A stretch of DNA of 64,000 nt, taken from contig CALWRH010000004.1 in NCBI GenBank assembly GCA_944383895.1, forward strand, positions 86,404-150,403, in the 5' to 3' direction. Below are positions 31,523 through 45,020 of the stretch, in pieces. The notes beneath the pieces are model-generated. The model was not told the origin of the DNA. It worked only from the letters and a program-made list of their open reading frames with translations, and made no database searches. This stretch comes from an uncultured Christensenellaceae bacterium (GTDB lineage: Bacteria > Bacillota > Clostridia > Christensenellales > UBA3700). The translations under genes were made by a program, and so were the position numbers. How positions within the stretch are numbered: position 1 is the first letter of the stretch; every line of letters begins with the position of its first letter.

Positions 31523-31737
31523 ATTCCGCGCTTTTTGCAGACTTTTTTGTCAGAAAAACTGATGAAGTCATAGCGGCAATGCCGCTGGTTTTCGGCTGTA
31601 AAAAAATTTTATAAAATTTGCAAAAAACCATGTTCAACCTCTTGACAAGCCGCATAAGCAGATATATAATGTGGGCGAAATCCGAGAGGAAGTAAAAATC
31701 CTGAGGATGAGAAAACTTAATACAGGAGGTGAGTGGT

Positions 31738-31806
31738 ATGAAATCGATGTGGCTCGCTTTCAGAGAGTACGTTCGCAGATACGGTCTTTACATAAAAATC
31801 TGGTAA
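31738..31806 (+). CDS. Putative 22-aa peptide MKSMWLAFREYVRRYGLYIKIW
   Basis: TTGACA-N17-TATAAT promoter (31642-31670), AGGAGGTG RBS, downstream hairpin with T-run. Confidence 0.55.
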   Translation: MKSMWLAFREYVRRYGLYIKIW

Positions 31807-31932
31807 AAGACGTTCAGCGAACGAAACAGAGGACAATGCAAAGTGCATTGTTATTTTTTTGCCCTTTTTCACCTTTATTTTCTAAATTTCAGTCTGAAAA
31901 ACATAACTTTGAATACAATTTTATCAATGCGA

Positions 31933-31961
31933 TTGACTAACCGTTGTCGATTTGGTATACT
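31933..31961 (+). promoter_or_regulatory. Sigma-A promoter for the repeat/tRNA-Ser transcript
   Basis: TTGACT-N17-TATACT. Confidence 0.7.
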
Positions 31962-32020
31962 CAAAAGGCACTGAAGGGTGCAAGCCCACATGAGGTATAT
32001 AAACAATTAAATAATTTAGG

Positions 32021-32465
32021 CATGGAGGCTAATTCGCTTACGCGAAAGCGACCGAAATGGGTCTTTGCATGGAAGAAGGATATAGTCGGATCGCCGAAGC
32101 GGTTATAACGAGGCGGTCTTGTAAGGAGCGTAGCAACGGAATAGCGAGCGGCAGAAAGTATCTTAAGAGCAGGACAATTTCTGCGAGCGTCAAACTCGTT
32201 TGGGTGCAAGCCCATAAAGAATAAAAAATTTTAATATTAAAGGCATGGAGGCTACTTCGCTTACGCGAAAGCGACCGAAAGGAGTCTTTACATAGAAGAA
32301 AGATATAGTCGGATCGCCGAAGCGGTCATAACGAGGCGGTCTTGTAAGGAGCGTAGCAACGGAATAGCGAGCGGCAGAAAGTGTTTTAAGAGCAGGACAA
32401 TTTCTGCGAGCGTCAAACACGTTTGGGTGCAAGCCCATAAAGAATAAAAAACTGAATATATTAGG
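32021..32465 (+). repeat. Two tandem ~223-bp repeats made of interrupted tRNA-Ser fragments
   Basis: Units start at 32021 and 32244; each contains GGAGGC, CGAAGCGGTYATAACGAGGCGGTCTTG and CGTTTGGGTGCAAGCCCA matching the adjacent tRNA. Confidence 0.9.
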
Positions 32466-32468
32466 CGT

Positions 32469-32557
32469 GGAGGCGTATCGAAGCGGTCATAACGAGGCGG
32501 TCTTGAAAACCGTTTGGGTGCAAGCCCACGGGGGTTCGAATCCCTCCGCCTCCGCCA
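32469..32557 (+). tRNA. tRNA-Ser (anticodon TGA)
   Basis: Acceptor GGAGGCG/CGCCTCC, anticodon arm GCGGT-CTTGAAA-ACCGT, long variable arm TGGG-TGCAAG-CCCA, GGTTCGAATCC, encoded CCA. Confidence 0.96.
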
Positions 32558-32595
32558 AGAGGAATCGTGTTTGAACACACGGTTCCTCTATTTTT
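32558..32595 (+). terminator. Terminator after tRNA-Ser
   Basis: AGAGGAATCGTGT...ACACGGTTCCTCT followed by ATTTTT. Confidence 0.7.
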
Positions 32596-32757: not shown

Positions 32758-33885
32758 TCAATTATCTGATGGTTTTTCTTGTAACATCATTATAATCGAA
32801 GGCAAATATAGTAAAACTTCCTCAAAAATTTCTTCTTTATTACACAAATAGTCCGCTATTATCCGCAAATTCAGATATAACAATAACAGCTTTACAGCAG
32901 AATACTTATCAACGTCAATCAAATTGCTATCATAATCTCCATGTATAATTGTATTTCGATGAATTACTCCCTCAACCGGAACTGTTGCATAAACTTTTTG
33001 ATAGTAACTATCAATCTTATTCCACGCACTTTCAATCCATGGATCATCAGTATTATCGATTAATTCATCAATTTTTTGAGCACGTTGATGACCTTTTTTA
33101 TATTGTTTTCTTTTCGCTACTATTCCCTCATATGTATTTGCTGCTTTTTTATGTTCGCTGTCCAATAAAGCAAATAAATTTCTTACTGCGCTTCTATAAT
33201 ATCCACAATTTATCAATTCTATTGTTGCTCCAATATCTTCTTGCTTTCTTATCATAGAAATTCCTGGATTCTTCATGTTTAGCAATGTCGATAATAATAC
33301 ATTTAATCCTGCACAATCTGAATACAAAAAGGCATCAATTATATCTTCCGCTTGAATATCTTTATCCAATATAGGCAAATCTGGCGTTTCTAAATAATAC
33401 AAAAACAACCCCTCATCGGCATAAAAAGCCATTTTCTCTTTATATTCTGCAGAAAATAATTCCTCCCTGTCTTTTTTCAACTTTGACTCAAAATTAGAAA
33501 ATGCCACAATATATTCATAAAAAGCTTTTGTGAATTCAGGTTGAATCTTGTCATACTCATTGAGCTCTGAAATCTTTTTCCTTTTTTCTAATATTTCAGA
33601 ATGCTTTTCAGGCTCCTTTCTTGCGACGTCGAGTACCTGTTGAATTATGCCTAATTTTATGTCTTCTTTAGGGATCACTTTATTTAATTCAGGATATTTT
33701 TCTAATAATTTTCTTGTTCCTTCGTGTAATAAAACAAATGATTGTTCCCAATAATTGTCATACACACTTCTTTTCTCCATCATTTCTTTTGACAATCTTT
33801 CTTGCTCTTCGATGGCTTTCAATACTTCTGGTGTTTGACACTGCTCTTTTTGTTTGATAAAAAAGTTTAATATATTTTCGTTCAT
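32758..33885 (-). CDS. Hypothetical protein with C-terminal HEPN-like RxxxxH motif
   Basis: IHRNTIIHGD near C-terminus; helical; AT-rich; AAGGGGG RBS before ATG 33885. Confidence 0.65.
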   Translation of the reverse strand: MNENILNFFIKQKEQCQTPEVLKAIEEQERLSKEMMEKRSVYDNYWEQSFVLLHEGTRKLLEKYPELNKVIPKEDIKLGIIQQVLDVARKEPEKHSEILEKRKKISELNEYDKIQPEFTKAFYEYIVAFSNFESKLKKDREELFSAEYKEKMAFYADEGLFLYYLETPDLPILDKDIQAEDIIDAFLYSDCAGLNVLLSTLLNMKNPGISMIRKQEDIGATIELINCGYYRSAVRNLFALLDSEHKKAANTYEGIVAKRKQYKKGHQRAQKIDELIDNTDDPWIESAWNKIDSYYQKVYATVPVEGVIHRNTIIHGDYDSNLIDVDKYSAVKLLLLYLNLRIIADYLCNKEEIFEEVLLYLPSIIMMLQEKPSDN

Positions 33886-33954
33886 ATGAACCCCCTTGAT
33901 ATAATACAATCAGTATATCACATATTGCTTAATATGGAACACTACACTCCAATT

Positions 33955-34179
33955 TTTTGCCGTTTCGGAGAGGCTATCGTAGCACGGATTTCTCATAAGT
34001 CAAGGCGAAAAAATTGTTTTTATTTTGCTGTGCATCAACTGGGAAGTGATCTTCTCGGTTGATTTATTTTTCTATTCAACACAATTTTTTATCTTCTTCC
34101 CTTGACTTCTGAACACATTACAAATCAACACTTATACATTTATCAATCAGTGCTACTTGCCTCGTGCCGAAAGGCAAAA
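33955..34179. promoter_or_regulatory. Long imperfect hairpin, Frpo/ssi-like single-strand promoter or origin
   Basis: Nested arms TTTTGCC/GGCAAAA, TTTCGG/CCGAAA, GAGGC/GCCTC, GTAGCAC/GTGCTAC, AAGTCAAGG/CCTTGACTT, AAAAAATTGT/ACAATTTTTT; minus strand of left arm reads TTGACT-N16-TACGAT. Confidence 0.7.
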
Positions 34180-34200
34180 TAAAAATTGGAGGTATAGTAT

Positions 34201-34461
34201 ATGGAAAAATCAGTTTCCAAAATTCCCGAGTTCAAACAGTATTACCTTTCTGAATTTGAATTCTTTGACGGTGATGAGTTTATCACTTTCAACATTGTCG
34301 GTATCAACGTAACAAGAAACACTATTGCGATAGCGGTGTCCGACAGAGGTAAGATCAGCATTATCGACTTCGACCTTATGTCGGATAAAGACGGTAATCT
34401 TTACTTCGAGTACGGTTGCACGTTCAAAAAGATCTATCTCGATGACTTCACGGAGGTATGA
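34201..34461 (+). CDS. Small hypothetical protein (first gene of leading-region-like operon)
   Basis: GGAGGT RBS; overlaps start of next ORF. Confidence 0.75.
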   Translation: MEKSVSKIPEFKQYYLSEFEFFDGDEFITFNIVGINVTRNTIAIAVSDRGKISIIDFDLMSDKDGNLYFEYGCTFKKIYLDDFTEV

Positions 34462-34877
34462 CTATGAAACTTACATTAGCTAACGTCAAAGACCTTAAAA
34501 AAGGCAGCAATAACAAGCTGACGAAAAGGGTCTGTAATTACGTCATGTCCAGATGGAGCGACTACGACGATAAAAAGCATATCTTCACGGACGTGCTCAA
34601 TTATGGCTGTCAGTCGGGCGTTGTAGGCGAACTTATCTATTACTCCGATACGGTGCGCTTCTACAAGCTGTATAAAGACGAAATCAATGCGCTTTTGTAT
34701 GACGCAATGTACGGAACGGGACTCTACTCTCCGTCCGATCTGTTCGGCAATAAGTGGGATAAGGAAGATCCGTTGGCGCAGGACACTTACAATCAGAATC
34801 TTCTGGCGTGGTTCGGCTTTGAAGAAACACTCAGAAAAATCGGTTACAACTTTGAAAAACTCGAAAATTTTATCTAA
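34458..34877 (+). CDS. Hypothetical protein (mobile-element type, GCQSG/NLLAWFGFEE motifs)
   Basis: GGAGGT RBS; tightly packed operon; start may be 34464. Confidence 0.75.
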   Translation: MTMKLTLANVKDLKKGSNNKLTKRVCNYVMSRWSDYDDKKHIFTDVLNYGCQSGVVGELIYYSDTVRFYKLYKDEINALLYDAMYGTGLYSPSDLFGNKWDKEDPLAQDTYNQNLLAWFGFEETLRKIGYNFEKLENFI

Positions 34878-34890
34878 GGAGGAAAAAACT

Positions 34891-35301
34891 ATGAAAACAA
34901 CAATCACCAAGAAAGAGAAAGCAATCGAAATCCTGAAAAGGATGGACATTTACAAGCCGTACATAAAGGGCTTTGAGGAAGAAGACAAGGTATGCTTCTT
35001 TGAACAGTTCGGCGGTTTCTGGATAGATCAGGAGCCGGAAGTATACGCAAAGATGAAAGCCATCGAAGAAAAGCATAAGTGCAAAGTTTACGCCGTTACG
35101 CACGAGTACACGGAGTTCGGAGAGCTTTACTCCTTCCTTATCGTTACAGATTATCCCGAAGAGTGGGACGATCTCGTATACAGCGAAGGAAATCAGCATA
35201 CGGCATTTGCCTACGTCTGGAACAAAGACGACGATTATTGCTCCGAATTCGGCAGCGTTACCGTACAGAGTTTCGGTGGCGGAATAAGAAGGATCGCGTG
35301 A
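34891..35301 (+). CDS. Small acidic hypothetical protein
   Basis: AAGGAGG RBS before ATG 34891; YVWNKDDDYCSEFGSV...GGGIRRIA. Confidence 0.75.
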   Translation: MKTTITKKEKAIEILKRMDIYKPYIKGFEEEDKVCFFEQFGGFWIDQEPEVYAKMKAIEEKHKCKVYAVTHEYTEFGELYSFLIVTDYPEEWDDLVYSEGNQHTAFAYVWNKDDDYCSEFGSVTVQSFGGGIRRIA

Positions 35302-35309
35302 GGTGAAAT

Positions 35310-35621
35310 ATGAAAGTATATCTCGTAAAACTTGATTGGTCTACCGAAGACAGCAACGACGTGGAGATAACCGTTTGCGGTACATACGAAAAAGCATACG
35401 AAAAGTTCAAGGAACTGATCGCAGACGAAATGAATCCGCAAAATTCCTGGGCGGGCGAAATTGAATGGGATAACGACGTCCCGAAAGACGACAAAATCGA
35501 ATTTGACTTCCTCGACCGCAGGAACGACACCGATGAGACCGAGTGTTATTGGATGATTACCGATACATGGAATTACGGAGTGCATACCTTTATCTCAATA
35601 GAAATTAAGGAGGTCTTATGA
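35310..35621 (+). CDS. Small highly acidic hypothetical protein
   Basis: GAGGTG RBS; very D/E-rich 103 aa. Confidence 0.75.
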   Translation: MKVYLVKLDWSTEDSNDVEITVCGTYEKAYEKFKELIADEMNPQNSWAGEIEWDNDVPKDDKIEFDFLDRRNDTDETECYWMITDTWNYGVHTFISIEIKEVL

Positions 35622-35624
35622 AAT

Positions 35625-35999
35625 ATGGCAAAACTCAACGACCTTAAGAAGTACATTGATTACGAATTTTCGTCCGGATGCTATACGGGCGAAGATTACA
35701 AATCCTTTCAGACGAAGTACATAAATTACCTGAGAGCGATGTGCAAAGAAAACCATTGGGAGCTTGTCAAGGTAGGCAAAAACCATTACTGCTTTTCGGC
35801 GTTTATCAAAAGCTCGGAAAATAAGTGCGTTTACCTGTCTATCAGCGACGTGAGATACTTCTCCAACGAGTGGTACAGCCACATACTCGTCCGCACGGCG
35901 AAAAACGAGGTAGATTACAGAGGCGGTTTCAACAACTATACGACGCTCGAAAATCTGGACTACACCGTGGCAAAACTTCTCAAAGACTTGCCGTTTTAA
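35625..35999 (+). CDS. Hypothetical protein
   Basis: In operon; YLSISDVRYF, ILVRTAK, DYRGGFNNY motifs. Confidence 0.75.
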   Translation: MAKLNDLKKYIDYEFSSGCYTGEDYKSFQTKYINYLRAMCKENHWELVKVGKNHYCFSAFIKSSENKCVYLSISDVRYFSNEWYSHILVRTAKNEVDYRGGFNNYTTLENLDYTVAKLLKDLPF

Positions 36000-36010
36000 G
36001 GAGGAAGACA

Positions 36011-36664
36011 ATGAAACTCGATCTTGAAGCTAAAACAAAAGAACAGGAACTCGTAAAAGCGTATCTCGAAGAGAACGCAAGCGAAGTCCTGGCAGAGAAA
36101 ATCAACAACGGAGTCCGTATCGAAAAAGACGACAAAACGCTGATAAACAAAAAGACGTTGGACGGCTTTATGAAATACGCATCTGACGAGGCGAGGAAAC
36201 TTGCCTCCAAGGGTGCAAATTCAGCGTGCGTTGAAGATAGAGTCGTGTACGGCTGGGCTGTGCATTACTTTGAAGAAGACTCGATAGAAGGTACTCTTTA
36301 CAACGAGGACGGAAGCGAATATAAGCCCGCGCCTAAGGTTACGGACAAGCCTGTCGTTAAACCTGTAAAACCCAAGGACAGCTCCGCTCAGATCTCTATG
36401 TTCGATTTTGAGGAAAAGGAAGAGCAAAAGAACGAAGACGAAGAGGAAGAAGACGTCGAGGAAAAAGACAAAGACGATGACGACGAAGAGCCGCCGACAC
36501 AGGAAGAAATCAACGAAATGCTTGCAGAACTTGCCGAAGACGAAAAGTTAAGCAATATGCAAGAAGTAATTGACGTTGAAACCGGTGAGATAATCTCCGA
36601 GTCTAACGACGAAATAATAAGCAAGCTGAGGGACATTCTCGGCGACTGCTTTATAGTGAGGTGA
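36011..36664 (+). CDS. PcfK/AcrIIA9-like protein with acidic C-terminal tail
   Basis: KTLDGFMKYASDEARK...EDRVVYGWAVHYFEED, QISMFD; directly upstream of the PcfJ-like gene; AGGAGG RBS. Confidence 0.7.
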   Translation: MKLDLEAKTKEQELVKAYLEENASEVLAEKINNGVRIEKDDKTLINKKTLDGFMKYASDEARKLASKGANSACVEDRVVYGWAVHYFEEDSIEGTLYNEDGSEYKPAPKVTDKPVVKPVKPKDSSAQISMFDFEEKEEQKNEDEEEEDVEEKDKDDDDEEPPTQEEINEMLAELAEDEKLSNMQEVIDVETGEIISESNDEIISKLRDILGDCFIVR

Positions 36665-36668
36665 AATT

Positions 36669-37985
36669 ATGAAAGTGACAGACATCAGACCTATTCCGAA
36701 ATACATATTGAACAAAATCAGAAAAGCGGATAACAAAAACTGTCCGAGTCCTGACGGTCACGTTCGCTGCTATGCATACTTGACTACTTGGAAAAACGAA
36801 CTTATAAAAGTGACCGTTGCAGTCAAACACCGTTACAAAAAATGGTACTGTAAGCAAGTTGCCGTTCACGGACTGAACTCCGAAAAATGCTTCGTGAAAG
36901 ATATGGAATACTGTTACTGTGCAAGTATGGGATTCCGTTTCGGCTGGTACGACGAAGGTTTGCAAAAATACAAAAACTGGTACGAACGCGGTTGGTGCTG
37001 GGCAGACGATAAATATTACGACCCGTATGCGGAGATTGTCAATCTCGATTTTATAGACCGCTTGCCGGAGTTCAAATACAGCGCATATAAACTTTACCAG
37101 GGCTGCAATATCTTCAAATATTTACGTCTTTATAGACAGTATCCCCAAATGGAACTGTTGATGAAATTCGGTTTTGCGAGTATCGCTCAAAGCAAAATGA
37201 TATTGAAGCTGACCGCAAAAGACAAGAAATTTTGCAAATGGCTGATACGCAATAAAGAACAGATACTCGATTCGTATTGCTATATCGACGTTATCATAAG
37301 GGCGTACCGTACAGGAAGAGAAATCGCATGTCTGCAAGCGTACAGACATGCTAAATTGGCACTCCGTACGGACAACCATAGAGATGAAATAAAGGAACTT
37401 TTCAAAGGCAAAGACCTCGAAAAGTTCTTTGACTATATAGCAAAGCAAAAGACGAATATAAACAGTTATTGCGACTACATAAAGGCTTGCAAACGTCTCG
37501 GCTTGGATCTTACGCAGGAAAAGAACTTGCTGCCTCACGACTTCAAGCGTTGGCACGATATACGAACAGACGAATACGCAACTCAAAAGGCTCTCGAAGA
37601 CGAAGAAAAGCGTAAAGAACTCTATGCGAAATTTGCGGAGATTGCTCGAAAATATACATCTCTCGAACACGCAAAGAAAAGCGCGTTTGTCTGCATTATA
37701 GCGAAAAGCCCTGCAGACCTTATCCGAGAAGGCGAGGTACTGCATCACTGCGTTGGGCGTATGAATTACGACCAGAAATTCGTAAGAGAAGAATCGCTTA
37801 TCTTCTTCGTTCGTAATAAAAATAATCCCGACGTCCCGCTCGTTACTCTCGAATATTCGGTGAAAAACAAAAAGATACTGCAATGTTACGGAGACCACGA
37901 TACTAAACCGAGCGAAAACATACTGCATTACGTCAACAAGATATGGCTGCCGTATGCGAGAAAAACAATAAAAAACATAGCATAA
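36669..37985 (+). CDS. PcfJ-domain protein
   Basis: YCDYIK, LLPHDFKRWHD, LIREGEVLHHCVG, IFFVR, TLEY, QCYG. Confidence 0.85.
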   Translation: MKVTDIRPIPKYILNKIRKADNKNCPSPDGHVRCYAYLTTWKNELIKVTVAVKHRYKKWYCKQVAVHGLNSEKCFVKDMEYCYCASMGFRFGWYDEGLQKYKNWYERGWCWADDKYYDPYAEIVNLDFIDRLPEFKYSAYKLYQGCNIFKYLRLYRQYPQMELLMKFGFASIAQSKMILKLTAKDKKFCKWLIRNKEQILDSYCYIDVIIRAYRTGREIACLQAYRHAKLALRTDNHRDEIKELFKGKDLEKFFDYIAKQKTNINSYCDYIKACKRLGLDLTQEKNLLPHDFKRWHDIRTDEYATQKALEDEEKRKELYAKFAEIARKYTSLEHAKKSAFVCIIAKSPADLIREGEVLHHCVGRMNYDQKFVREESLIFFVRNKNNPDVPLVTLEYSVKNKKILQCYGDHDTKPSENILHYVNKIWLPYARKTIKNIA

Positions 37986-37997
37986 AGGAGAAAGACT

Positions 37998-38282
37998 ATG
38001 AACAATTATTACAGAATTACAGCATATCACCCCGCAGAAGATTTATCCGTTATTGCGGATAGCAACGGCAAGTTTGAAAAGCTCTGGGAGTTTTCGGCTT
38101 ATCTGGTATCCAAAGGTTTCAAGGTAATAGCCGTAAACAAAGAAGAAGGCTTTGAAATTGGCAATTTACCTAAAATCGCTCTGAATAATGATAAAATTAC
38201 AATTCAGGCATATTTTAAAGGTAAACCAGTTGTAGAAGGTAAAATGATTTCCGTAGGTTCAAGTTATTATAATATTTTATAA
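37998..38282 (+). CDS. Small hypothetical protein
   Basis: AAGGAG RBS; last gene of operon before the terminator. Confidence 0.7.
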   Translation: MNNYYRITAYHPAEDLSVIADSNGKFEKLWEFSAYLVSKGFKVIAVNKEEGFEIGNLPKIALNNDKITIQAYFKGKPVVEGKMISVGSSYYNIL

Positions 38283-38286
38283 TATT

Positions 38287-38321
38287 AAAGCCGAGACTCG
38301 TACAGAATCTCGGCTTTATTT
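38287..38321. terminator. Bidirectional terminator
   Basis: AAAGCCGAGA...TCTCGGCTTT between convergent operons. Confidence 0.75.
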
Positions 38322-38337
38322 ATGATAACATGATTTA

Positions 38338-40638
38338 TCATTTATGCAAGTTATGTAAACAATTATATGCTTCTTTTATGAAGGATCTCTTTTCTTCTTC
38401 TGAATAGCAATTAAATGAATGCGAAGAATCGTTTAAAAATCTTAATCTGTCTAATAATTCGTCTTCACATTCACTTGAAAGATATCCATTCTTTGCGAGG
38501 ATTGTTATAAAATCATGCAAGCTCTTACCTTTCAGCTCACAAGTTTTAGATGTTTCGTATGCATAATACATATGCAAATACTTCTCGAACAGAATACGGA
38601 CATCGTTTTCCGCAATATCGTTAATATCGGCATTAATAAACCTAATTACTTTGTCTAACAACGCCTCGTAATTGTCTTTAAATATGTTATCGTCTGTTGA
38701 TAGAGGTACAAAAATATGATTATCTTTATCTTTCTTTATTTGCAAAATAGATTTGTTTTCCTTTGTAAAAGTATTAATGACTCTGAAAAAATTTTCATAG
38801 TGCATCAATAGAATAACTTGCGCAAAACAACTTTTACTCAACTCTTGCAACAACAAAGCAAAAAGCCTCATTCGATCTTGATCAAAACTAGTTATAGGAT
38901 CGTCTAAGACTAAAATCATATTAGGATTTTTGTCTACTTTAATTTTAGCCAAAAATATGGACAACGCCAATGCCCTTTTATCAGACTCACTTAAGCAAAA
39001 CCTATTTTGATCCACTAAATTATCTTTAAAGTAAATCTTAACACCATAAACTTTCTTTTTACCGCGCGGTGGCGTTTCTCTCTCCAACCTATAATTTTCG
39101 CTTCCCAATTTTTTATAGATTTCTTGAATCTCTGCAAAATATGTATCTAAAAATTTTGATTCACTATCATCTATTTTAGTTCGTATATCTTTAATCTTTT
39201 TTCGAATTTCAGTAATATGATCTTCAAGCTGAATCAACCTCTCGATCTCATCATTTTGCATACCGCGAATTAATACTAAATTAGCACCATAATACTCACT
39301 GTTTAAAACTTTAATCTTATTATCTATCGATTCAAGAGTAAGACTATTTTTAAACTCTTCAAAAATAATATTGATCGCGCTGATTCCTTCATTTAAATCA
39401 GCAACTTTTAATTCAAGTTCTTCGATAACTTTTATCGCGGCATTAGTATCGGTAAAGTCATAGTCGCAACAAGTAAACGACCGTAATTTATCGGTTAACG
39501 CAGAATACAACTCTTCACGAGACCTATCTATAGCAGTTCCTAATCTTATATCAAGCTCGCTTATTTCGTCTAAAGCTTTTTCTATTATTTCGCACTCATC
39601 ACGCAATGCATATTGGCTGATGTTTGTTGTCTGCTGTCTAATCTTATTTATTAAAGTGCCGATGCTACAATTTCGATAGTGTCTCATAACCTTCGATTGC
39701 GCATTTTCAACTTTATCTAAAAGTGCAACAATCAATTCCGAAAAATATTCAGAAAAAATTTTAACGCGTCTATTTTGCGCTATATCTTCGCCACAAAAAG
39801 GGCATTTGTTTGTTTTTAATTTTATTCCTTCTTTTATCCACGAATCTGACAAATTTGGAGTTTCTTCTTTGAACTTATTGATATCTTTAAGCAGTTTCGT
39901 GAGATCAACATCAATTACAACCCCGCAAATCTCTTTTACCTGTTTGACTATATCTTTAATTGAATTACAGTCTATGCTCAACAACGATATGCTGGGAATT
40001 TTTTTTATATCGGATATATTGCTTTTCTGTTTTACATATTCTTTTAAAGCCTCTTTTATTGATATTAACAAGGATTCTTTATCTTTAAAATTTTCATCAT
40101 ATGGAATCTTACGAATAGTATCATAGCTAATATCTCCAATATTCTTTTCCAAAGAACTTTTTAAACTCTCAAACTCTTCTTTTTTTTGGGATGAGGCATT
40201 TTCTAATTCGCTCAATATTTTTACTAATTCAACGCTTCTTTCGCCAAGAATAAAATTAGTTAAATTTTCTTTATTTTTATGCTCAATTACTCCATTAGTA
40301 AAAACATTTTCTTCCACAAAATTAACATCAAATACTTCAATGTTTTTGCTAATATCCGCATCCGCAGGAATGATCCATGTACTACCATCAAATTTAACAT
40401 TTTTTCCGCTAATGGTAAAATCTACTTCACATTTTTCAGTTGGTTTAATCCCAATTCTTCTACGTTTTAATATATACGAGCAATCGAGCGTCTTCAACGA
40501 ACGGATAATATCGCAAAACGTCGTTTTACCATATGTGTTTGCCGCATAAATATAAGAAAACCGATCTAATTCAATTCGACCATTTCCAGAGTTTTCATAT
40601 GTCCCAATATTTTTTATGCTCTTTATACGTTCAATCAT
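38338..40638 (-). CDS. RloC-like SMC/ABC ATPase (AAA_13) with zinc hook and C-terminal HEPN-like domain
   Basis: Walker A AANTYGKTT, FDVNFV, CPFC hook within coiled coil, LSESDK signature, VLDDPITSFD, RILFE, RFLNDSSH. Confidence 0.8.
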   Translation of the reverse strand: MIERIKSIKNIGTYENSGNGRIELDRFSYIYAANTYGKTTFCDIIRSLKTLDCSYILKRRRIGIKPTEKCEVDFTISGKNVKFDGSTWIIPADADISKNIEVFDVNFVEENVFTNGVIEHKNKENLTNFILGERSVELVKILSELENASSQKKEEFESLKSSLEKNIGDISYDTIRKIPYDENFKDKESLLISIKEALKEYVKQKSNISDIKKIPSISLLSIDCNSIKDIVKQVKEICGVVIDVDLTKLLKDINKFKEETPNLSDSWIKEGIKLKTNKCPFCGEDIAQNRRVKIFSEYFSELIVALLDKVENAQSKVMRHYRNCSIGTLINKIRQQTTNISQYALRDECEIIEKALDEISELDIRLGTAIDRSREELYSALTDKLRSFTCCDYDFTDTNAAIKVIEELELKVADLNEGISAINIIFEEFKNSLTLESIDNKIKVLNSEYYGANLVLIRGMQNDEIERLIQLEDHITEIRKKIKDIRTKIDDSESKFLDTYFAEIQEIYKKLGSENYRLERETPPRGKKKVYGVKIYFKDNLVDQNRFCLSESDKRALALSIFLAKIKVDKNPNMILVLDDPITSFDQDRMRLFALLLQELSKSCFAQVILLMHYENFFRVINTFTKENKSILQIKKDKDNHIFVPLSTDDNIFKDNYEALLDKVIRFINADINDIAENDVRILFEKYLHMYYAYETSKTCELKGKSLHDFITILAKNGYLSSECEDELLDRLRFLNDSSHSFNCYSEEEKRSFIKEAYNCLHNLHK

Positions 40639-40714
40639 TATTTATCCTCAGCAAAATCTTCATTTACATACTTCATTAATAGAAATCATATGTAATAAAC
40701 TTAACTTCCCCTTT

Positions 40715-43700
40715 TTAATACACTAAGAGTGGAATTTCTTCGTTGACAATACCATGCAATACCTCATCAACTTTAGAAACATATTGCATCTGCTTTGCTA
40801 TTTTGTTTAAAAGATCCAAAAAATCTTTGAAGTCATCATGTGTAAACTCACAGTGTGTATATCTAAAAGAATGGAATTTTAACCAGCAATCTTTAATGAC
40901 ATTATAGCCCGCCACTGTAAATCTTAAAATTTCTATTGGACAAGGAACCATTATTTCTATGCCGGAAATTTCGTCACGAAGTACAATAAGTTCATGTTCC
41001 TCATCAAATGGATTTTTTGATGCAGATCTGCTATGTTCTAACTTAAACCCAGTTGGCAACTGCTCCAAAAGCATATCATAATCCAAGCCCAATACATTTT
41101 CTATAGTAACATTTTTCTTTTCAAGATTCGCAATCTTTTCCCCAAGTGTTGATAGTAGGAAAAAGGCATCACTAGAAGCCACAATTGGAATTCTAGCTCG
41201 ACTTTCAGACTGATTAACCACATAAAGAGCGCCATAAAATTCATCCAAATAGACTTGAGAACAAAATATTGCATACGCATAAAAAACCATTTTTCTAGCG
41301 CATTCGCTCTCATTCATCCCCGTTAATGAAATAATATGATCGAGAAGTGTTCTATGTATATTATTAACTATTTCGTTCGTCCTAGTATTAGGAATATATT
41401 GGTTTAAATAAATATGCCCATTTCCCCTACGACTAAGATCGTTGTCAGGGAAGTACCAACAAAATGATGCAAACTGTCCAAGAGATTCATCTAAATCTTT
41501 AGGAGCGTGCGCTAAAGAAAAACCGATAGTATCCTCGTGTTCATAAATAGCTTTTATTTCCGGTCTAATTCTAGTACCTCCTCCACCAACTCCAGCTTGA
41601 TATTCAAAAACAGTACTCCATAATAGAGCATTAGAGTTAACAAAGGGTCTGAAGGAACACTGCCGTATATTATCTTCTAACACAGTATCCAATTGTTGTC
41701 TATTCGCACAAGTGTTCAAGGCGTTTTGAAATGCTGCTATTTTTAAAGAAACTACAGTCTTATCCTGACGCCCAATCCATTCCTGTGCCTTTAAAACTCC
41801 ACCAATTGCAATCTCTCGACTACGTCTTTTAAGCATAGACCGTTTAACATGAGTTAAAAGTGCAGTCGGAGCCATTTTTGAGCCTGAACATTGATTAAGA
41901 AACACAGCCTTCCCGCTATCATTACTTATAGGCCAAAAACGAGCATACATTTCCCGATTAAAGGGTTTTACTGGCAAAAATGAATACATTACATCTGAAA
42001 CAGGAAATGTTTCAAACGACTCAATTATTGATTGAATGTCCGTTTCAAGAGCTGATATTTTTTCTGTTCTCCGACCCCTTGACATATCAATATAATTAAT
42101 CTCATTAATATGGGTATTTTCACCATACTTACGAGTGAGTAAAATTATTGCCCTACCTTGCATGGTATAGAATAGGCTATCTCCGCGAATACCACTTCTT
42201 GCATCGGCATCAATAGCAATCGCCCAAATATGGGAGAAATGTTCTATTAAATATTTTCTTGCATATTTATACGACTCTGCTTCTAAAAATGAAAGAGGAA
42301 CAACAAACGCCAAAGCAGAATGACATTCAGAATCCAAAAGTTTTTTGCAACTCCAACGCAAAAACTGCATAAATGGATTATTGATTTGTTTTTGAATATT
42401 TTGGCGATTGTGTCGACGCTCAATAGGTGGACGAAAATCATCCATCATTTCAGAAATGCGTGAAAAATCATCGGATGAAGCATTACGACTAGAATCCGAA
42501 CAAGGAGGATTACCAATAATAAGTTTTATAGGCTTTGAAGACAACTCGTTTGCGCGAATTAACTCTCTGCCTTCAATAGATGCCGAGTTAGCCTTTTCTC
42601 CTAAAAGACAATTACTTAAAGTATTAGCAAGTATAATACTTGCTTTTAAATTCCTTTTATCATATTGACGCTCCACGATAGACATACGATAGTTGGCAAG
42701 CATATAAGGGGCTGGCAAAATCTCAAATCCACACAAATTATATGCACCATCGCCATCATCATGCGCTATAATTTGCTCTAAAAACGACCCTGTTCCACAG
42801 CACGGATCAATAATAGTATTTCCGTCATCATAAATGGATGCCCCGTCGAACTTATCATGGACAATTCGGTTTATTAATCTGACAATAAAATCAGCAAGAA
42901 CTTTTGGAGTATAATATGCACCATAGTCAAATCGTGATTTCTCATCAAACTTTGTCAAGAACATTTCAAAAAGATGGTGATAGTCAGGATTCATAAGTTG
43001 ATCGTCTGTCATTTGTACGAAAGAAAGAAAATCTATACACTCATCAACCCATTGATCAATAAAAGTAGCGTGCCCAGCATTATCTCGCAAATATACCATT
43101 AAATTGCGGAAAGGAAGCAACACTTCACCATCATCGATATCCTTAAACGCGTACTCTCTTATTTTGGCAGCCTTTAGAGCGGGAGAATCACAACTTGCAC
43201 AAAAAACTCTATGCGCATACAACAAACAAAACATAATCACCTGAGCTACAAAATCAGAAAAAACACCTCCTGTACGAAGCATAGGGTCATTATGATTGTA
43301 AATAAGCTCCTTTAATCCATCTAATAACGTAATTATATGGCGCTCATCTTCATTTATCGCTTCTTCCATTCTTAAATCTGATTGGGCCAATATTTCATCC
43401 GCGAGATTTCTTGTTCGGACAGCTACCAATTCTACTAGTTTTTCCTCATTCACTCTTTGCGGTGCTGGATTCGAAAAAAACTGCTCCATATAAAAACGGA
43501 ACAAAGGATTTATGGGTAAACGGGACCAATCCGCAGTATTTACCATATCCTTATCGATAAGCGAGACAACGGTAGGATTGTCTGTAAAACAAAAGACAAA
43601 GTCTATCCCGTCGGTTATAATCAACTTATGCCCCAATGTTAAATATCGATTAATCTGATCCTTGTAAGGGGTTATATCAAATGGATCTGCAGAAGGACCT

Positions 43701-43963
43701 TTGCCCTCAATATACCCATACACACCGAGGGATACCGCGTCTTGTATTCTCCAATCAGGTCTTCCCATGCGTCCTTGATTTTTAGGTTCTAAAATAATAT
43801 CAAAATTTCCACAAGGGTTCAAGTCATGTGCAATACGCTTAAACAATGTATGCATAGGCACCCGGAATGATAATTCGGCAGTATGTTGCCCACCGCGAAT
43901 CGCTGCGTCATATTCTCGCTGATATTCACGCAAATAATTTTTTACATCTACATCAAATGCCAT
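40715..43963 (-). CDS. Type IIG/ISP-like restriction-modification enzyme (nuclease + N6-MTase fold + specificity domain, no helicase)
   Basis: RPDW...GYIEGK nuclease motif, GAYYTP, DPCCGTGSF, GNPPC in place of NPPY, C-terminal GYNVIKDCWLK resembling type ISP C-terminus. Confidence 0.8.
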   Translation of the reverse strand: MAFDVDVKNYLREYQREYDAAIRGGQHTAELSFRVPMHTLFKRIAHDLNPCGNFDIILEPKNQGRMGRPDWRIQDAVSLGVYGYIEGKGPSADPFDITPYKDQINRYLTLGHKLIITDGIDFVFCFTDNPTVVSLIDKDMVNTADWSRLPINPLFRFYMEQFFSNPAPQRVNEEKLVELVAVRTRNLADEILAQSDLRMEEAINEDERHIITLLDGLKELIYNHNDPMLRTGGVFSDFVAQVIMFCLLYAHRVFCASCDSPALKAAKIREYAFKDIDDGEVLLPFRNLMVYLRDNAGHATFIDQWVDECIDFLSFVQMTDDQLMNPDYHHLFEMFLTKFDEKSRFDYGAYYTPKVLADFIVRLINRIVHDKFDGASIYDDGNTIIDPCCGTGSFLEQIIAHDDGDGAYNLCGFEILPAPYMLANYRMSIVERQYDKRNLKASIILANTLSNCLLGEKANSASIEGRELIRANELSSKPIKLIIGNPPCSDSSRNASSDDFSRISEMMDDFRPPIERRHNRQNIQKQINNPFMQFLRWSCKKLLDSECHSALAFVVPLSFLEAESYKYARKYLIEHFSHIWAIAIDADARSGIRGDSLFYTMQGRAIILLTRKYGENTHINEINYIDMSRGRRTEKISALETDIQSIIESFETFPVSDVMYSFLPVKPFNREMYARFWPISNDSGKAVFLNQCSGSKMAPTALLTHVKRSMLKRRSREIAIGGVLKAQEWIGRQDKTVVSLKIAAFQNALNTCANRQQLDTVLEDNIRQCSFRPFVNSNALLWSTVFEYQAGVGGGGTRIRPEIKAIYEHEDTIGFSLAHAPKDLDESLGQFASFCWYFPDNDLSRRGNGHIYLNQYIPNTRTNEIVNNIHRTLLDHIISLTGMNESECARKMVFYAYAIFCSQVYLDEFYGALYVVNQSESRARIPIVASSDAFFLLSTLGEKIANLEKKNVTIENVLGLDYDMLLEQLPTGFKLEHSRSASKNPFDEEHELIVLRDEISGIEIMVPCPIEILRFTVAGYNVIKDCWLKFHSFRYTHCEFTHDDFKDFLDLLNKIAKQMQYVSKVDEVLHGIVNEEIPLLVY

Positions 43964-45018
43964 TTTTTTTTACCTGCTTTTTCATAACTTTTAATAATGC
44001 TCTTCCCAATACATTCAGCCATAACAGGAGGAACAGCATTACCTATCTGCCTAGCAATATCAACTTTATTTCCAACAAACTCGAAATCTATAGGAAATGT
44101 TTGTAATAATGCACCCTCACGCAATGAAATACTACGATCCTGTATAGGATGACCAAATTTTCCTCTGGTAAAGCTATCAAATCTAGCTGTTATCGTAGGA
44201 GCGACATCGTCCCAAGCCATACGCCCATATACATTGCGAAATCCTATCACCGAACTATCAATTTTATGACAGTCTGCTAACAAATCATCTGGAAGATCAT
44301 CACGTCCTTGCCCCTCCTTAATAGCGCGAATCCGTTGCAAATTGCGTTCAGATAAATGATCGCGCCGATGAAGCGGTAACACTGGATGATCCGTTCCATC
44401 TTGCGGGGGCTCAGGAAGGTCTCCTATTGTATCACGAACCGTATGACGTATTCCTGTAGGTGCAGGATACTCGTAATAATTTCCAATGTCCTTTCGTTCG
44501 CCAATAACTATATATCTTTTGCGTCTCTGCGGAACACCATAATTTTGAGCATCTAAGAGCTCGATATGGACATAATAACCAATTTGTTCAACGTCTTCAA
44601 TAAGTTGCTGCAATATTGTCTTTCCACGTTTGCCGGCAATACCAGACACATTTTCCATAACAAAATATTTTGGATATAATTCATCAATTAAATTTCCATA
44701 CTTTAAAACTAGTCCGTTTCTTGAATCCGTATCACTACCTCTTCTCTGAACCGAAAAGCCTTGGCAAGGTGGACCTCCAGCTAATAAAAATAAATCACCT
44801 CGGCTAAGATTACAACGCTTAAGTAAGTTTCCATTAAGCATTTCTGCAATATCAGCAACAATGGCAGTATGATCAAAATACTTTTTATTTCTTTTTATTG
44901 TATCTATACATAGTTTATCTATATCAAAGCTCAATAAAATATTGAACCCTGCCCGCTCAAGCCCTAAACCTAGTCCTCCCGCACCACAGAAACTATCAAT
45001 ACAAGTATATTTAGTCAC
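43948..45018 (-). CDS. DNA cytosine-5 methyltransferase (M2)
   Basis: FCGAGG, GGPPCQGFS, ENV, QRRKR, QIGNAVPP. Confidence 0.93.
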   Translation of the reverse strand: MTKYTCIDSFCGAGGLGLGLERAGFNILLSFDIDKLCIDTIKRNKKYFDHTAIVADIAEMLNGNLLKRCNLSRGDLFLLAGGPPCQGFSVQRRGSDTDSRNGLVLKYGNLIDELYPKYFVMENVSGIAGKRGKTILQQLIEDVEQIGYYVHIELLDAQNYGVPQRRKRYIVIGERKDIGNYYEYPAPTGIRHTVRDTIGDLPEPPQDGTDHPVLPLHRRDHLSERNLQRIRAIKEGQGRDDLPDDLLADCHKIDSSVIGFRNVYGRMAWDDVAPTITARFDSFTRGKFGHPIQDRSISLREGALLQTFPIDFEFVGNKVDIARQIGNAVPPVMAECIGKSIIKSYEKAGKKKWHLM

Positions 45019-45020
45019 TC

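Follow-up and report, generated by a model that had tools for sequence, protein, structure and literature searches.

The tRNA-Ser(UGA) gene in the analysed 64,000-nt stretch of DNA (the window) is preceded by two tandem partial copies of itself, and each of these units carries two inserts which belong to multi-copy repeat families, here called module 1 and module 2. On balance, with a modest lean in its favour, the units are best read as non-functional partial copies of tRNA-Ser(UGA) that were colonised by two non-coding, non-autonomous, structure-dependent repeats targeting the hairpin loops of tRNA genes; the leader units would then be passengers. Judged from the occurrence of its sequence pattern, module 1 appears to be a portable element of Christensenellales-type gut Clostridia. 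The modules seem to be undescribed: open-access literature, searched by words, yielded no account of elements of this kind.

Organization of the tRNA-Ser locus

The sole tRNA of the region, according to ARAGORN and Rfam, is tRNA-Ser(TGA) at 32469-32557, and Tandem Repeats Finder reported a 223-bp period at 32018-32451 (1.9 copies, 95% matches). One promoter, two units of 223/222 bp and an intact tRNA-Ser(UGA) had been reported in a preliminary description of this DNA, and all of them are present. The features are as follows.

31933-31961, + strand: promoter-like site TTGACT-17-TATACT, TG-extended, upstream of the leader array and the tRNA and driving both
31976-31988, + strand: solo variable-arm remnant GGGTGCAAGCCCA, at the left edge of the repeat array, directly past the transcription start
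32018-32240, + strand: unit 1, tRNA-Ser 5' leader and tRNA positions 1 to ~53, with two inserts
32030-32094, + strand: insert 1 of unit 1, a module 2 copy (sequence reading and homologous copies)
32122-32192, + strand: insert 2 of unit 1, a module 1 copy, after GGTCTTG of the anticodon loop
32241-32463, + strand: unit 2, 95% identity to unit 1
32253-32317, + strand: insert 1 of unit 2, a module 2 copy (sequence reading)
32345-32415, + strand: insert 2 of unit 2, a module 1 copy (sequence reading)
32469-32557, + strand: intact tRNA-Ser(UGA), CCA encoded (ARAGORN, Rfam)
32558-32589, + strand: intrinsic terminator of the tRNA-Ser transcription unit

The units are 223 and 222 bp in length, with inserts of 65 nt and 70 nt in each; the sequence reading placed the 70-nt insert at 32122-32191 and 32345-32414. 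Reading of the sequence bore out the two inserts and the missing T-arm and 3' acceptor strand that had been noted for each unit; what is lacking is the T-loop, the 3' strand of the T-stem and the 3' strand of the acceptor stem. The units are not tRNA genes: their cloverleaf is incomplete, and neither the Rfam RF00005 model nor ARAGORN calls them. The variable-arm hairpin was recovered at all four positions previously listed, as exact copies of GGGTGCAAGCCCA at 31976, 32202, 32425 and 32516 in the window, whereas the expectation from shuffled sequences is 0. The promoter (GCGATTGACTAA...TATACT) also precedes tRNA-Ser(TGA) in four other genomes (G005, G009, G011 and G013).

Insert 1 of unit 1 (module 2) is composed of a hairpin TTCGC-TTAC-GCGAA, which contains GCGAAAGC, and a long hairpin that ends in GGATCGC and abuts CGAAGCGG of the D-arm. 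Homologues of module 2 were found at C4:14955 (tRNA-Ser GGA), at C13:45728-45916 and in the Arg array of C3, and also in the Ser units of G013, G005 and G012. Insert 2 of unit 1 (module 1) reads TAAGGA, the P1 hairpin GCGTAGC, AACGGAATAGCGA, the P2 hairpin and GAGCGTCA. A group I intron has a catalytic core of about 200 nt or more, is recognised by the Rfam Intron_gpI model and lies inside an otherwise complete tRNA; the anticodon-loop insert is not of this kind, since it has 70 nt, has no Rfam match at E up to 1, and interrupts an incomplete host copy.

Reality of the array and variation among relatives

The array is not a one-off assembly product, because arrays of 1-3 units with diverged sequence precede tRNA-Ser(TGA) in six further genomes (the congeneric G013, G005, G012, G010 and G008, and G046 of genus g3), and a DNA contig from a public run spans the junction between unit 1 and unit 2 with zero differences. 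An artefact of assembly from short metagenome reads, with a repeat collapsed or a chimera formed, is therefore a very improbable source of the tandem units. In related assemblies contigs often end in repeats of this family, and no single contig of the public runs compared spans the whole array; however, one of the six comparable arrays is in a single-contig genome, and unit 2 is linked with the tRNA by contigs from RNA libraries. The exact unit number in this strain, taken from short-read assemblies, is provisional.

Depending on the species of the genus, 0, 1, 2 or 3 full units precede tRNA-Ser(UGA). No full unit is present in the congeneric G007, G009, G014 and G011, which have just the variable-arm remnant and the spacer at this locus. 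The two inserts occur independently of each other; for example, the last unit of G005 and that of G012 contain module 1 and have an empty module 2 site. Copy number also varies at the tRNA-Cys locus, which is empty here and has 5 units in G010.

Distribution of module 1 and its association with tRNA genes

Module 1, the anticodon-loop insert at the Ser locus, has the pattern TAAGGA-hairpin-GACGGAATAGCGA-hairpin-GAGCGTCA. Its 40-100 nt comprise TAAGGA, the variable hairpin P1, GAC, a bulge GGAATA, the helix P2 (which begins with GCGA and bears a variable hairpin), GAGC and GTCA; a right-hand extension reads NATTTCRRAC. This genome contains 11 exact-pattern copies, 9 of them outside the Ser locus; 8 of these 9 lie beside the tRNAs Trp, Thr, Arg, two Pro and Leu, and a partial copy beside tRNA-Asn fails the exact pattern. 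The pattern was found in 40 of the 74 genomes of the family, at 1-23 copies per genome (the reversed-pattern control gave 1 match), and in 16 of the 201 genomes sampled across the order. It also occurs in two other families of the order; genera g1, g9 and g11 and families f36 and f42 are module-positive, and genera g10 and g8 module-negative. At least 120 stretches of public MAGs contain module 1, and the public records with the module are labelled Christensenellaceae and Ca. Coproplasma.

A total of 136 copies were examined with their surroundings. Most of them (83) are antisense to and downstream of a tRNA gene, 77 of these within 600 nt, and are joined exactly to a duplicated tRNA 3' end which is broken between T-loop positions 55 and 56. 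Nine copies are on the same strand and upstream, all 9 in anticodon loops of tRNA-Ser(UGA), and 2 are antisense and upstream. The other 42 have no tRNA within the stretch fetched, and most of them still have TGG and a reverse-complemented tRNA 3' end at the left. The left junction always follows YTYG, mostly TT(C/T)G, at a site inside a 7-nt hairpin loop. The target loop is nearly always the T-loop read antisense, which places the junction between tRNA positions 55 and 56, and the tRNA species found next to the module end number at least 17.

At the T-loop-type loci tRNA positions 56-76 are duplicated downstream, whereas at the Ser locus the 5' part is duplicated upstream. The upstream, same-strand site in the anticodon loop of the Ser locus can be explained because the anticodon arm of tRNA-Ser(UGA) (GGCGGTCTTGAAAACCG) is similar to a T-arm in reverse complement (GGCGGGACTTGAACCCGC in tRNA-Leu). 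The rule that integration scars normally duplicate the 3' tRNA end downstream, which had earlier been set against a scar at this locus, stands, and such a duplication is the usual context of the module; the Ser locus is the exception. The tRNA fragments lie 83-945 nt away from their tRNA, and each T-loop-type unit carries the tRNA 3' end, the trailer and the terminator. On the far side of the module the tRNA 3' end recurs once more, in inverted orientation. Simple insertion, as envisaged in the preferred reading, does not explain this inverted end.

The modules have been transferred between loci; an identical 49-nt module is located behind tRNA-Ser(GGA) in G003 and tRNA-Arg(CCG) in G010. In G191 the module has become a component of mosaic repeats scattered at a distance from tRNAs. 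The genome-wide search of the inserts, also beside other tRNAs, had been proposed as a check in the preliminary description, and both inserts proved to be multi-copy families, always at loops of tRNA fragments. Its suggestion that the units are footprints of a miniature tRNA-targeting mobile repeat fits these data, as copies are found beside many tRNAs and the unit number and insert content vary among relatives. The mobility rests on between-species comparisons, since no fresh insertion with a same-species empty site was seen.

Secondary structure and covariation of module 1

Folding and covariation analysis, another check named beforehand, gave a covarying secondary structure for module 1. 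In an alignment of 37 sequences 89.9% of the cells pair, versus 73.9% in shuffles, and 62 double-sided changes were counted, versus 20.8 in shuffles (0 of 500 shuffles reach the observed level); helix covariation of this kind separates neither strand from strand nor RNA from DNA. For example, the pair 33-50 is C-G in 30 sequences and U-A in 7, with 0 mismatches. P1 begins 6 nt inside the module, and 18 G.A oppositions, mostly tandem, were found in the P1 stems of the TAAGGA strand; the P1 counts of G.U versus A.C (4 versus 2) are too few to separate the strands. Among the 136 loops 96 are triloops, of which 57 are GNA. Of 105 modules, 93 have a better fold on the TAAGGA strand than on the complementary one, an asymmetry due in part to the G-rich composition.

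Across families the single-stranded motifs do not vary, and P1 is retained in orthologous copies via compensatory changes. These two properties would also be compatible with a selected function, for example as RNA. In the comparison of module 1 with Rfam 15 only tRNA passes, and the other matches are far under the thresholds and off the modules. DNA mini-hairpins of the GCGNAGC and GCGNNAGC types are reported to be of exceptional stability and to occur where single-strand replication is initiated (PMC13037366).

Proposed mechanism and candidate enzymes

In the preferred reading the module would act as single-stranded DNA, with hairpins of the very stable GCGNAGC / GCGAAAGC DNA mini-hairpin type, and might be placed at exposed tRNA-gene hairpins by an enzyme or by template switching at hairpins. 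A damaged gene copy would survive solely because an intact copy adjoins it, and the arrays might expand and contract by unequal recombination between the repeats. At the Ser locus transcription would make the array part of a long tRNA leader, which RNase P would then cut off; the tRNA "mimics" are most likely junk carried in this leader, and no function is proposed for them. A broader proposal, tentative and rather doubtful, is that module 1 and its companions represent a new class of miniature mobile element. Its folded single-stranded DNA would recognise tRNA-gene hairpins (T-arm or anticodon arm) at a fixed loop position, and its movement would depend on housekeeping functions of the host (such as a Xer-type recombinase or the replication/priming apparatus), not on its own transposase; the arrays of tRNA fragments would be a by-product.

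The search for an enzyme able to move the modules gave no positive result. In the genomes searched, module 1 does not share its distribution with any transposase, integrase, reverse transcriptase or nuclease, and these negatives mean "not found" and not "absent", because the genomes are only 91-96% complete. A Y1 transposase was rejected as the mobiliser; PF01797 was detected in 2 of the 15 genus members but not in G010, which has 23 module copies, so there is no phyletic match. RVT_1 was likewise rejected, being found in G011 and G071 but not in G000, G010, G013 and G003. Profile searches of the same 91-96% complete genomes found neither a TnpB/Cas12f-like TNB nor an IS110 DEDD transposase. 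A small GIY-YIG nuclease was not found either, the sole GIY-YIG match being a 617-aa ORF of UvrC size. IS200 was also rejected as the parent: its two 707-bp copies, the only IS compared, are inserted behind terminators, and their ends and end hairpins are unrelated to the modules, so that no autonomous IS with the same ends was found.

Insertion 3' of a fixed short target, with no duplication and with a subterminal hairpin, is shared with REP/IS200-IS605 elements as a behaviour and not as family membership. No target-site duplication was found at the Ser site, where the filled site reads CTTG-module-AAACCG and the empty site CTTGAAAACCG. The terminal inverted repeats of a MITE are lacking as well: the module's own ends (TAAGGA... 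and ...GCGTCA) are not inverted repeats, and the inverted repeats seen around the modules are copies of the local tRNA. Two other origins of the fragments were discarded. The partner strand is not a tRNA "minihelix" (deletion of positions 8-48), because the copy matches the sense 3' strand at G.U positions in 10 of 11 cases. A restriction cut at TTCGAA was rejected by reasoning as the cause of the break, since the T-loops TTCAAAT and TTCAAGT are broken at the same position.

Site-specific recombination as an alternative

The units might instead be miniature circles or cassettes that move via conservative site-specific recombination by a tyrosine recombinase, possibly the resident XerS-like enzyme, with the tRNA fragments as att-site duplications; this is quite unlikely. 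The breakpoints do lie in both kinds of 7-nt loop with 5-bp stems (T-loop and anticodon loop), and Williams is said to have described in 2002 that tyrosine integrases prefer exactly these loops, 7 nt long and flanked by 5-bp stems. Moreover, the arrays are head-to-tail at a fixed site and variable in number, the T-loop-type unit with its tRNA 3' end, trailer and terminator is like a gene-restoring attP, and a Xer-like recombinase of 351-359 aa is encoded in every genome checked (best NCBIfam match XerS, below cut-off). The arms of the L. lactis difSL, TTTCCGAAAA and TTTTCTTGACA (PMC2965235), resemble the target YTTYG|AA and the right end of the module, ATTTCGGA, although this resemblance was judged by eye alone. 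However, neither an integrase nor cargo lies between the tRNA and the fragment in the 136 copies, the junction flanks are not inverted repeats of each other, and the inverted tRNA 3' end beyond the module is not predicted. The use of one module end on at least 17 tRNA species would also be hard for a system needing identical overlap. No dif-like site was found near the XerS-like gene or elsewhere in the genome by a pattern search too loose to inform.

The supply of recombinases was also surveyed. G000 has 5 large serine recombinases, none beside an array, and tyrosine recombinases number only two each in G000 and in G010, the latter a complete genome with 23 copies. Movement by a recombinase would be comparable to an integrative element exploiting Xer, or to integron cassettes.

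Transcription and possible RNA function

The module strand is the promoter strand at the Ser locus. RNA-library contigs of 252 nt from runs X15 and X16 cover 32246-32474 (unit 2 to the tRNA start), with depths of 40.9 and 5.7 versus 2.9 for the neighbouring ORF region; such contigs are no proof of transcription, and their absence over 31836-32243 is uninformative. Transcription of the module strand here, as the promoter and these contigs would have it, stands against the preferred reading. At the tRNA-Thr array of this genome the terminators are on the tRNA strand, and neither strand has a promoter-like site. The modules are non-coding, as no recurrent ORF is located beside the arrays; the ORF clusters considered came either from neighbouring orthologues read in antisense or from the repeats themselves in translation.

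An unlikely explanation is that module 1 and the Ser leader units are functional structured RNA, whose copies persist next to tRNA genes because they influence how the tRNA is expressed or processed. Such an RNA might serve in cis as a leader element, or might act as a decoy for a tRNA-handling protein or for the ribosome, given its start UAAGGAG. The conserved single-stranded motifs and covarying helices point in this direction, as do the tRNA-Pro(CGG) orthologous copies of several species, which keep P1 by compensatory changes, and the tandem G.A pairs and GNA/GAAA loops, which are located on one strand. At the Ser locus a good promoter precedes that strand, and the unit 2 contigs are deeper than those of the ORF region; these contigs, however, do not establish transcription. 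In addition, among the 94 copies for which the fetched sequence includes a tRNA, 85 have TAAGGA on the strand opposite to that tRNA, and the tRNA-Thr array of this genome has no promoter-like site on either strand and terminators on the tRNA strand only. The units are dispensable at the Ser locus, because four congeneric species lack full units and others have 1-3. The position of the G191 module in dispersed mosaic repeats, the lack of a start codon after the Shine-Dalgarno-like start and the lack of a matching Rfam family also argue against an RNA function.

As its other reading the preliminary description had offered decoys binding SerRS or a nuclease, or regulatory leaders. This proposal keeps a small probability at the Ser locus, where the units are on the promoter strand and present in RNA-library contigs. 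It found no support: full units are missing from four congeneric genomes, and elsewhere the module is antisense to tRNAs and promoterless.

Comparison with known systems

The repeats REP/BIME, REPIN-RAYT, ERIC, RUP, BOX and Correia are short, non-coding, multi-copy and hairpin-forming intergenic sequences, which often lie just behind genes, in mosaic arrays, and vary in number between relatives. The modules resemble them in all of these respects: they are short, non-coding, multi-copy and intergenic, form hairpins, and occur in mosaic arrays of variable number. In contrast to those repeats, the modules are placed at one exact position of a tRNA hairpin loop, together with a duplicated tRNA fragment, and have long invariant single-stranded motifs between hypervariable hairpins. 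They are also not accompanied by a RAYT/Y1 gene, which was detected in 2 of the 15 genus members. The E. coli rtT RNA (Rfam RF00391) consists of tandem repeats with tRNA-Tyr 3' ends behind tyrT and is co-transcribed with the tRNA. The Ser units are similar in being tandem, beside a tRNA gene, each with a piece of that tRNA, and co-transcribed. No Rfam match was found here, and whereas the rtT repeats belong to one locus, the modules are genome-wide and family-wide with a conserved structure of their own.

Islands and prophages leave partial tRNA copies (attL/attR), with the 3' end downstream and the break in the T-loop or anticodon loop (PMC9897764). The module loci are like such scars in the 3' end duplicated downstream of an intact gene, the loop break and the possible tandems. 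They differ in units of only 130-370 bp with no cargo or integrase, in the 5' part duplicated upstream by the Ser units, in the same module end on many tRNAs and in the inverted tRNA 3' end across the module.

Folded single-stranded DNA sites are known from integron attC, rolling-circle ssoA-type origins and GCGAAAGC primase sites (PMC5703833, PMC4598088 and PMC13037366). An ssoA-type origin is a folded single-stranded DNA of some 160 nt, in which RSB precedes CS-6, and it is primed by RNA polymerase in an orientation-dependent manner. The modules resemble these sites in being orientation-specific, with variable hairpins between short conserved boxes and with GCGNAGC / GCGAAAGC mini-hairpins. 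For example, the module bulge contains TAGCGA (compare TAGCGT of the ssoA CS-6), and one P2 subtype contains ATGCCGAGA, which is 9 nt of RSB; both similarities are short and were found post hoc. The two boxes are in reverse order relative to the example of plasmid pSELNU1, and unlike at ssoA and attC neither a Rep gene nor an integron integrase is near the modules, in a comparison made from sequence alone.

Integrase scars and CRISPR spacers are the two sources of partial bacterial tRNA genes listed in PMC9897764. If the preferred reading is true, tiny structured repeats homing to tRNA hairpin loops would be a third source of tRNA gene fragments. The family would then also be a system for studying how DNA or RNA hairpins of tRNA genes get recognised, and by which enzyme; its junctions are sharp, its fold covaries strongly, and its copies in uncultured Christensenellales of the gut run to hundreds. 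The module repeats can mislead tRNA annotation, and they break assemblies at tRNA loci, where many copies terminate contigs.

Structure and transcription of the tRNA-Ser locus

The array upstream of tRNA-Ser(UGA) agreed base for base with the preliminary description, which had listed a promoter, two units with inserts and missing parts, and an intact tRNA. The variable-arm hairpin was likewise recovered four times in the window, where no copy is expected.

Features of the tRNA-Ser(UGA) locus (window positions)
31933-31961: promoter-like site TTGACT-17-TATACT, upstream of the units
32018-32451: 223-bp tandem unit, 1.9 copies, 95% matches
32030-32094 and 32253-32317: 65-nt insert 1, directly after GGAGGC
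32122-32191 and 32345-32414: 70-nt insert 2, directly after GGTCTTG of the anticodon loop
32469-32557: tRNA-Ser(UGA), the only tRNA of the window
32558-32589: intrinsic terminator after the tRNA

Each unit contains, in order, the tRNA 5' leader, GGAGGC (the 5' acceptor strand), the D-arm, the 5' and 3' halves of the anticodon arm, and the variable arm; as read from the sequence, the T-loop, the T-stem 3' strand and the acceptor 3' strand are absent. Two 252-nt contigs from RNA libraries of two studies (depths 40.9 and 5.7) cover 32246-32474, and the ORF region upstream of the units has a depth of 2.9. The contig coverage is consistent with a joint transcript of units and tRNA but is no proof of one, as such libraries may contain DNA. 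The units are dead partial copies of tRNA-Ser colonised by small modules, and it is the module family that is of interest.

Definition of the modules

Unit 1 was used as a query against its own genome (1.85 Mb, 18 contigs), and the first 27 nt of insert 2 recurred elsewhere. Insert 2 is a copy of module 1, which consists of TAAGGA, a hypervariable hairpin P1, (G/A)ACGGAATAG(C/T)GA, a variable region P2, and then GAGCGTCA or CGCGTCA. In this genome module 1 adjoins tRNA-Trp, Thr(GGU), Arg(ACG), Pro(GGG), Pro(CGG) and Leu(CAA); a partial copy lies beside tRNA-Asn, and one site has no called tRNA. Insert 1 is a copy of module 2, a hairpin TTCGC-YTRC-GCGAA containing GCGAAAGC, followed by a second hairpin with the end GGAT(T/C)GC. 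Near-identical copies adjoin tRNA-Ser(GGA), lie within the array behind tRNA-Arg, and occur on contig 13. Among the 42 CGCGAAAGC sites of the genome, 15 are at most 1300 nt from a tRNA, a zone of at most ~7% of the genome. The genome-wide search thus assigned each insert to a multi-copy family with copies beside other tRNAs. Long mosaics of several further small modules, such as GGGATTCG|GCGGC-loop-GCCGCTTTCGCGGTTTGCAATAA, were also seen on contig 3 (30535-31583, behind tRNA-Arg(ACG)) and contig 13 (45680-45960); the latter precedes an AAA-ATPase gene, with no tRNA nearby.

Distribution of module 1

Of 74 family genomes, 40 contain the pattern TAAGGA-N(5-35)-ACGGAATAG(C/T)G, in 1-23 copies each; the reversed-pattern control gave one match in total.

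Genomes with the module 1 pattern, by genus
Own genus, window's genome not counted (g1): 14 of 14
g9: 17 of 23
g11: 6 of 7
g3: 1 of 8
g5: 1 of 1
Six other genera of the family: 0

In an order-wide sample the pattern occurred in 16 of 201 genomes, several from two other families; the few lone long-gap matches there are probably due to chance. Among public species genomes, at least 120 stretches contain an exact 25-nt version of the pattern. The titles among the matches listed include Christensenella, Christensenellaceae, Candidatus Coproplasma, Ca. Limihabitans, Ca. Scatosoma, and plain Clostridia or Eubacteriales bacterium, with an animal-gut source throughout. The window's organism is a spore-former (YpeB), and its DNA is present in chicken-gut runs. 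In short-read MAGs the arrays lie very often at contig ends (e.g. stretches L052, L053, L058, L060, L063, L069); the tRNA loci of carrier organisms are therefore systematically fragmented, and module copy numbers are probably underestimated.

Position relative to tRNA genes

About 100 stretches around pattern matches were fetched, yielding 136 exact-pattern copies, decayed ones being missed. Antisense copies downstream of a tRNA predominate (83, of which 77 within 600 nt); two are antisense and upstream, both in tRNA clusters. Nine are upstream on the same strand, every one in the anticodon loop of tRNA-Ser(UGA), and are hosted by five genus genomes besides the window's and one g3 genome. For the other 42 the fetched stretch contains no tRNA, often through a contig end; most of these copies still have TGG and a reverse-complemented tRNA 3' end to the left.

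On the left, the junction is precise to the base: TAAGGA directly follows the reverse-complemented tRNA positions 76 to 56, which end in ...(A/G)(T/C)T(T/C)G. The T-loop is therefore broken between positions 55 and 56. The tRNAs concerned belong to at least 17 species (Cys, four Leu, Trp, Thr, four Ser, two Arg, two Pro, Val, Ala, Asn). In the tRNA direction, an array runs from the tRNA through a trailer with terminator to repeated units. Within each unit an inverted tRNA 3' end comes first, and the module, positions 56-CCA and another trailer with terminator follow. Three 132-nt units of this T-loop type stand behind the tRNA-Thr of the window's genome, and five 157-nt units behind the tRNA-Cys of the related genome G010.

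The anticodon arm of tRNA-Ser(UGA), GGCGGTCTTGAAAACCG, nearly equals a reverse-complemented T-arm, e.g. GGCGGGACTTGAACCCGC of tRNA-Leu(CAA), and CTTG precedes module 1 in both settings. With this shared target rule, module 1 therefore ends up in the tRNA-Ser anticodon loop and on the same strand as the gene. The module-bearing fragment at this locus comprises the 5' part of the tRNA and precedes the gene. Module 2 is joined to CGAAGCGG in the Ser D-arm, and in the same way to CGAACCCTC in a reversed T-arm that precedes tRNA-Ser(GGA). The likeness of the targets is plain from the sequences; that likeness may be the cause of module placement at the Ser locus.

Variation between species

Full units upstream of tRNA-Ser(UGA)
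None: G007, G009, G014, G011 (only a variable-arm remnant and spacer, after the promoter)
One: G010, G008
Two: the window's genome, G013, G005
Three: G012

In the last units of G005 and G012, module 1 is present and the module 2 site is uninterrupted (GGAGGCGTATCGAAGCGG); the two inserts are therefore independent events. In other genera of the family, G018, G022 and G016 are without Ser units. The tRNA-Cys locus is empty in the window's genome versus the five units of G010. Identical 49-nt modules follow tRNA-Ser(GGA) of G003 and tRNA-Arg(CCG) of G010. G191, from another family, has twelve copies inside two dispersed mosaic repeats of ~215-280 nt, away from tRNAs. Together, these differences show that the module is portable and that the arrays are dynamic and dispensable. 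The two G191 mosaic-repeat families measure about 215 and about 270 nt, and several of their loci (stretches L137-L148) hold inverted copies of one another's pieces.

Fold and strand of module 1

An alignment of 37 short-form modules supports a fold in which hairpin P1 is followed by a GAC/GUC helix of 3 bp, by GGAAUA as a six-base bulge, and by helix P2. The first pairs of P2 are G-C and C-G; next come a tandem G.A/A.G, or its Watson-Crick equivalents, and a variable hairpin. The covariation test supported this fold: 89.9% of cells were paired versus 73.9% in shuffles, and two-sided changes occurred in 62 cells versus 20.8, either value being reached by 0 of 500 shuffles, although the modules are relatives and these statistics overstate independence. 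In slid controls, 7-45% of cells paired. At pair 33-50, 30 modules have C-G and 7 have U-A, with no mismatch, and double changes occur at all six P1 pairs. In orthologous copies behind tRNA-Pro(CGG), P1 reads, by species, CGCAC/GTGTG, CGCAT/ATGCG, CACAT/ATGTG and CGCAC/GTGCG. Long-form P2 has an extra hairpin pair with a conserved loop (Y)AGGG.

Watson-Crick covariation cannot distinguish the strands. However, there are 18 G.A oppositions within P1 stems, mostly tandem, which are C.T on the other strand; 96 of 136 P1 loops are triloops, 57 of these GNA and nearly all C-G closed. The predicted folding energy is lower on the TAAGGA strand in 93 of 105 distinct modules (means -15.8 versus -12.8 kcal/mol), an advantage stemming partly from its G-richness. 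These features point to the TAAGGA strand as the folding one. It is the transcribed strand at the Ser locus and antisense to the tRNA in T-loop-type arrays. In the tRNA-Thr array of the window's genome, the tRNA strand bears three terminators; over 750 nt, neither strand shows a promoter-like site. Because of the antisense orientation and the promoter-less tRNA-Thr array, a role for folded single-stranded DNA is favoured. Both P1 in its short form (GCGNAGC) and the core of module 2 (GCGAAAGC) are "mini-hairpin DNA" motifs. PMC13037366 reports these motifs to be exceptionally stable as DNA and to occur where single-strand replication is initiated in phages G4, St-1 and alpha3 and in ssiA. In the tRNA-Cys array of G010 (L041, 1467-2278), each long-form module has a weak promoter-like TTGCCG-16-TATCAT (9/12) on the TAAGGA strand, within P2; these sites could be chance or could be tied to the resemblance to single-strand origins.

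Inverted flank and candidates for module movement

Right of the module, many T-loop-type units have NATTTC(G/A)(G/A)AC and, 2-3 bases beyond, a second copy of the tRNA T-stem and acceptor 3' strands. This copy runs opposite to the left one, and a long hairpin could therefore form with the module at its tip. In a gapless test, 17 of 117 units reached a stem score of at least 8, versus 0 of 117 shuffled flanks. Where tRNA stems have G.U pairs, 11 positions are informative (9 units, four tRNA species), and at 10 of them the right copy agrees with the sense 3' strand. The flank is therefore an inverted duplication rather than the tRNA's own 5' strand. The Ser unit of G010 and G008 also has an inverted anticodon-arm copy. 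Template switching at quasi-palindromes could yield such a duplication.

Among the genes and domains searched in genomes 91-96% complete, no mobiliser candidate was found. RVT_1 was not detected in the window's genome, G010, G013 or G003, and searches for TnpB-type domains, IS110 transposases and small GIY-YIG nucleases, as well as for a recurrent ORF beside arrays, were negative. The ends of the resident IS200 (two 707-bp copies) are unrelated to the modules, and the Y1 transposase was found in only 2 of 15 genus genomes and not in G010, which has 23 module copies. The IS200-type copies (C3:230320-231026 and C7:62531-63237, outside the window) are 99.9% identical; each encodes a 160-aa Y1 transposase and is inserted directly after the stem of a terminator-like hairpin. 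A rival explanation is that an Xer-type recombinase moves the modules. The window's genome and G010 have two tyrosine recombinases each, one being an Xer-like protein of 351-354 aa that adjoins lexA in the former; XerS is its best NCBIfam match, under the cut-off. The L. lactis difSL half-sites presented in PMC2965235 somewhat resemble the target and the module right end. The dif site of the carrier genomes was looked for and not found; the Xer idea is therefore only a rival and not a result.

The family behaves like small structured repeats of other bacteria, but differs in its very precise preference for tRNA-gene hairpin loops and in carrying tRNA fragments along. No description was found in the full text of open-access literature, and the modules matched no Rfam family. 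For prokaryotic tRNA gene fragments, PMC9897764 lists integration scars and CRISPR spacers alone.

Surroundings of the tRNA-Ser locus

No second copy of the tRNA-Ser 3' end was found in the window. An island directly after tRNA-Ser (32758-46340) encodes a 383-aa ORF with no Pfam match, DUF7222, a PcfJ-like protein, a 766-aa AAA_13 ATPase, a 1082-aa type ISP-like restriction-modification protein and two C5 cytosine methylases. Just past the window's end, at C4:152007, there is a gene for a large serine recombinase. Upstream, a perfect sigma-70-type promoter TTGACA-17-TATAAT (12/12, 31642-31670) is followed by a ~70-nt leader, a 22-codon ORF (31739-31807) and a terminator (31832-31852), a region (31642-31852) with no Rfam match. 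The leader and ORF are kept upstream of tRNA-Ser in G007 and G011.
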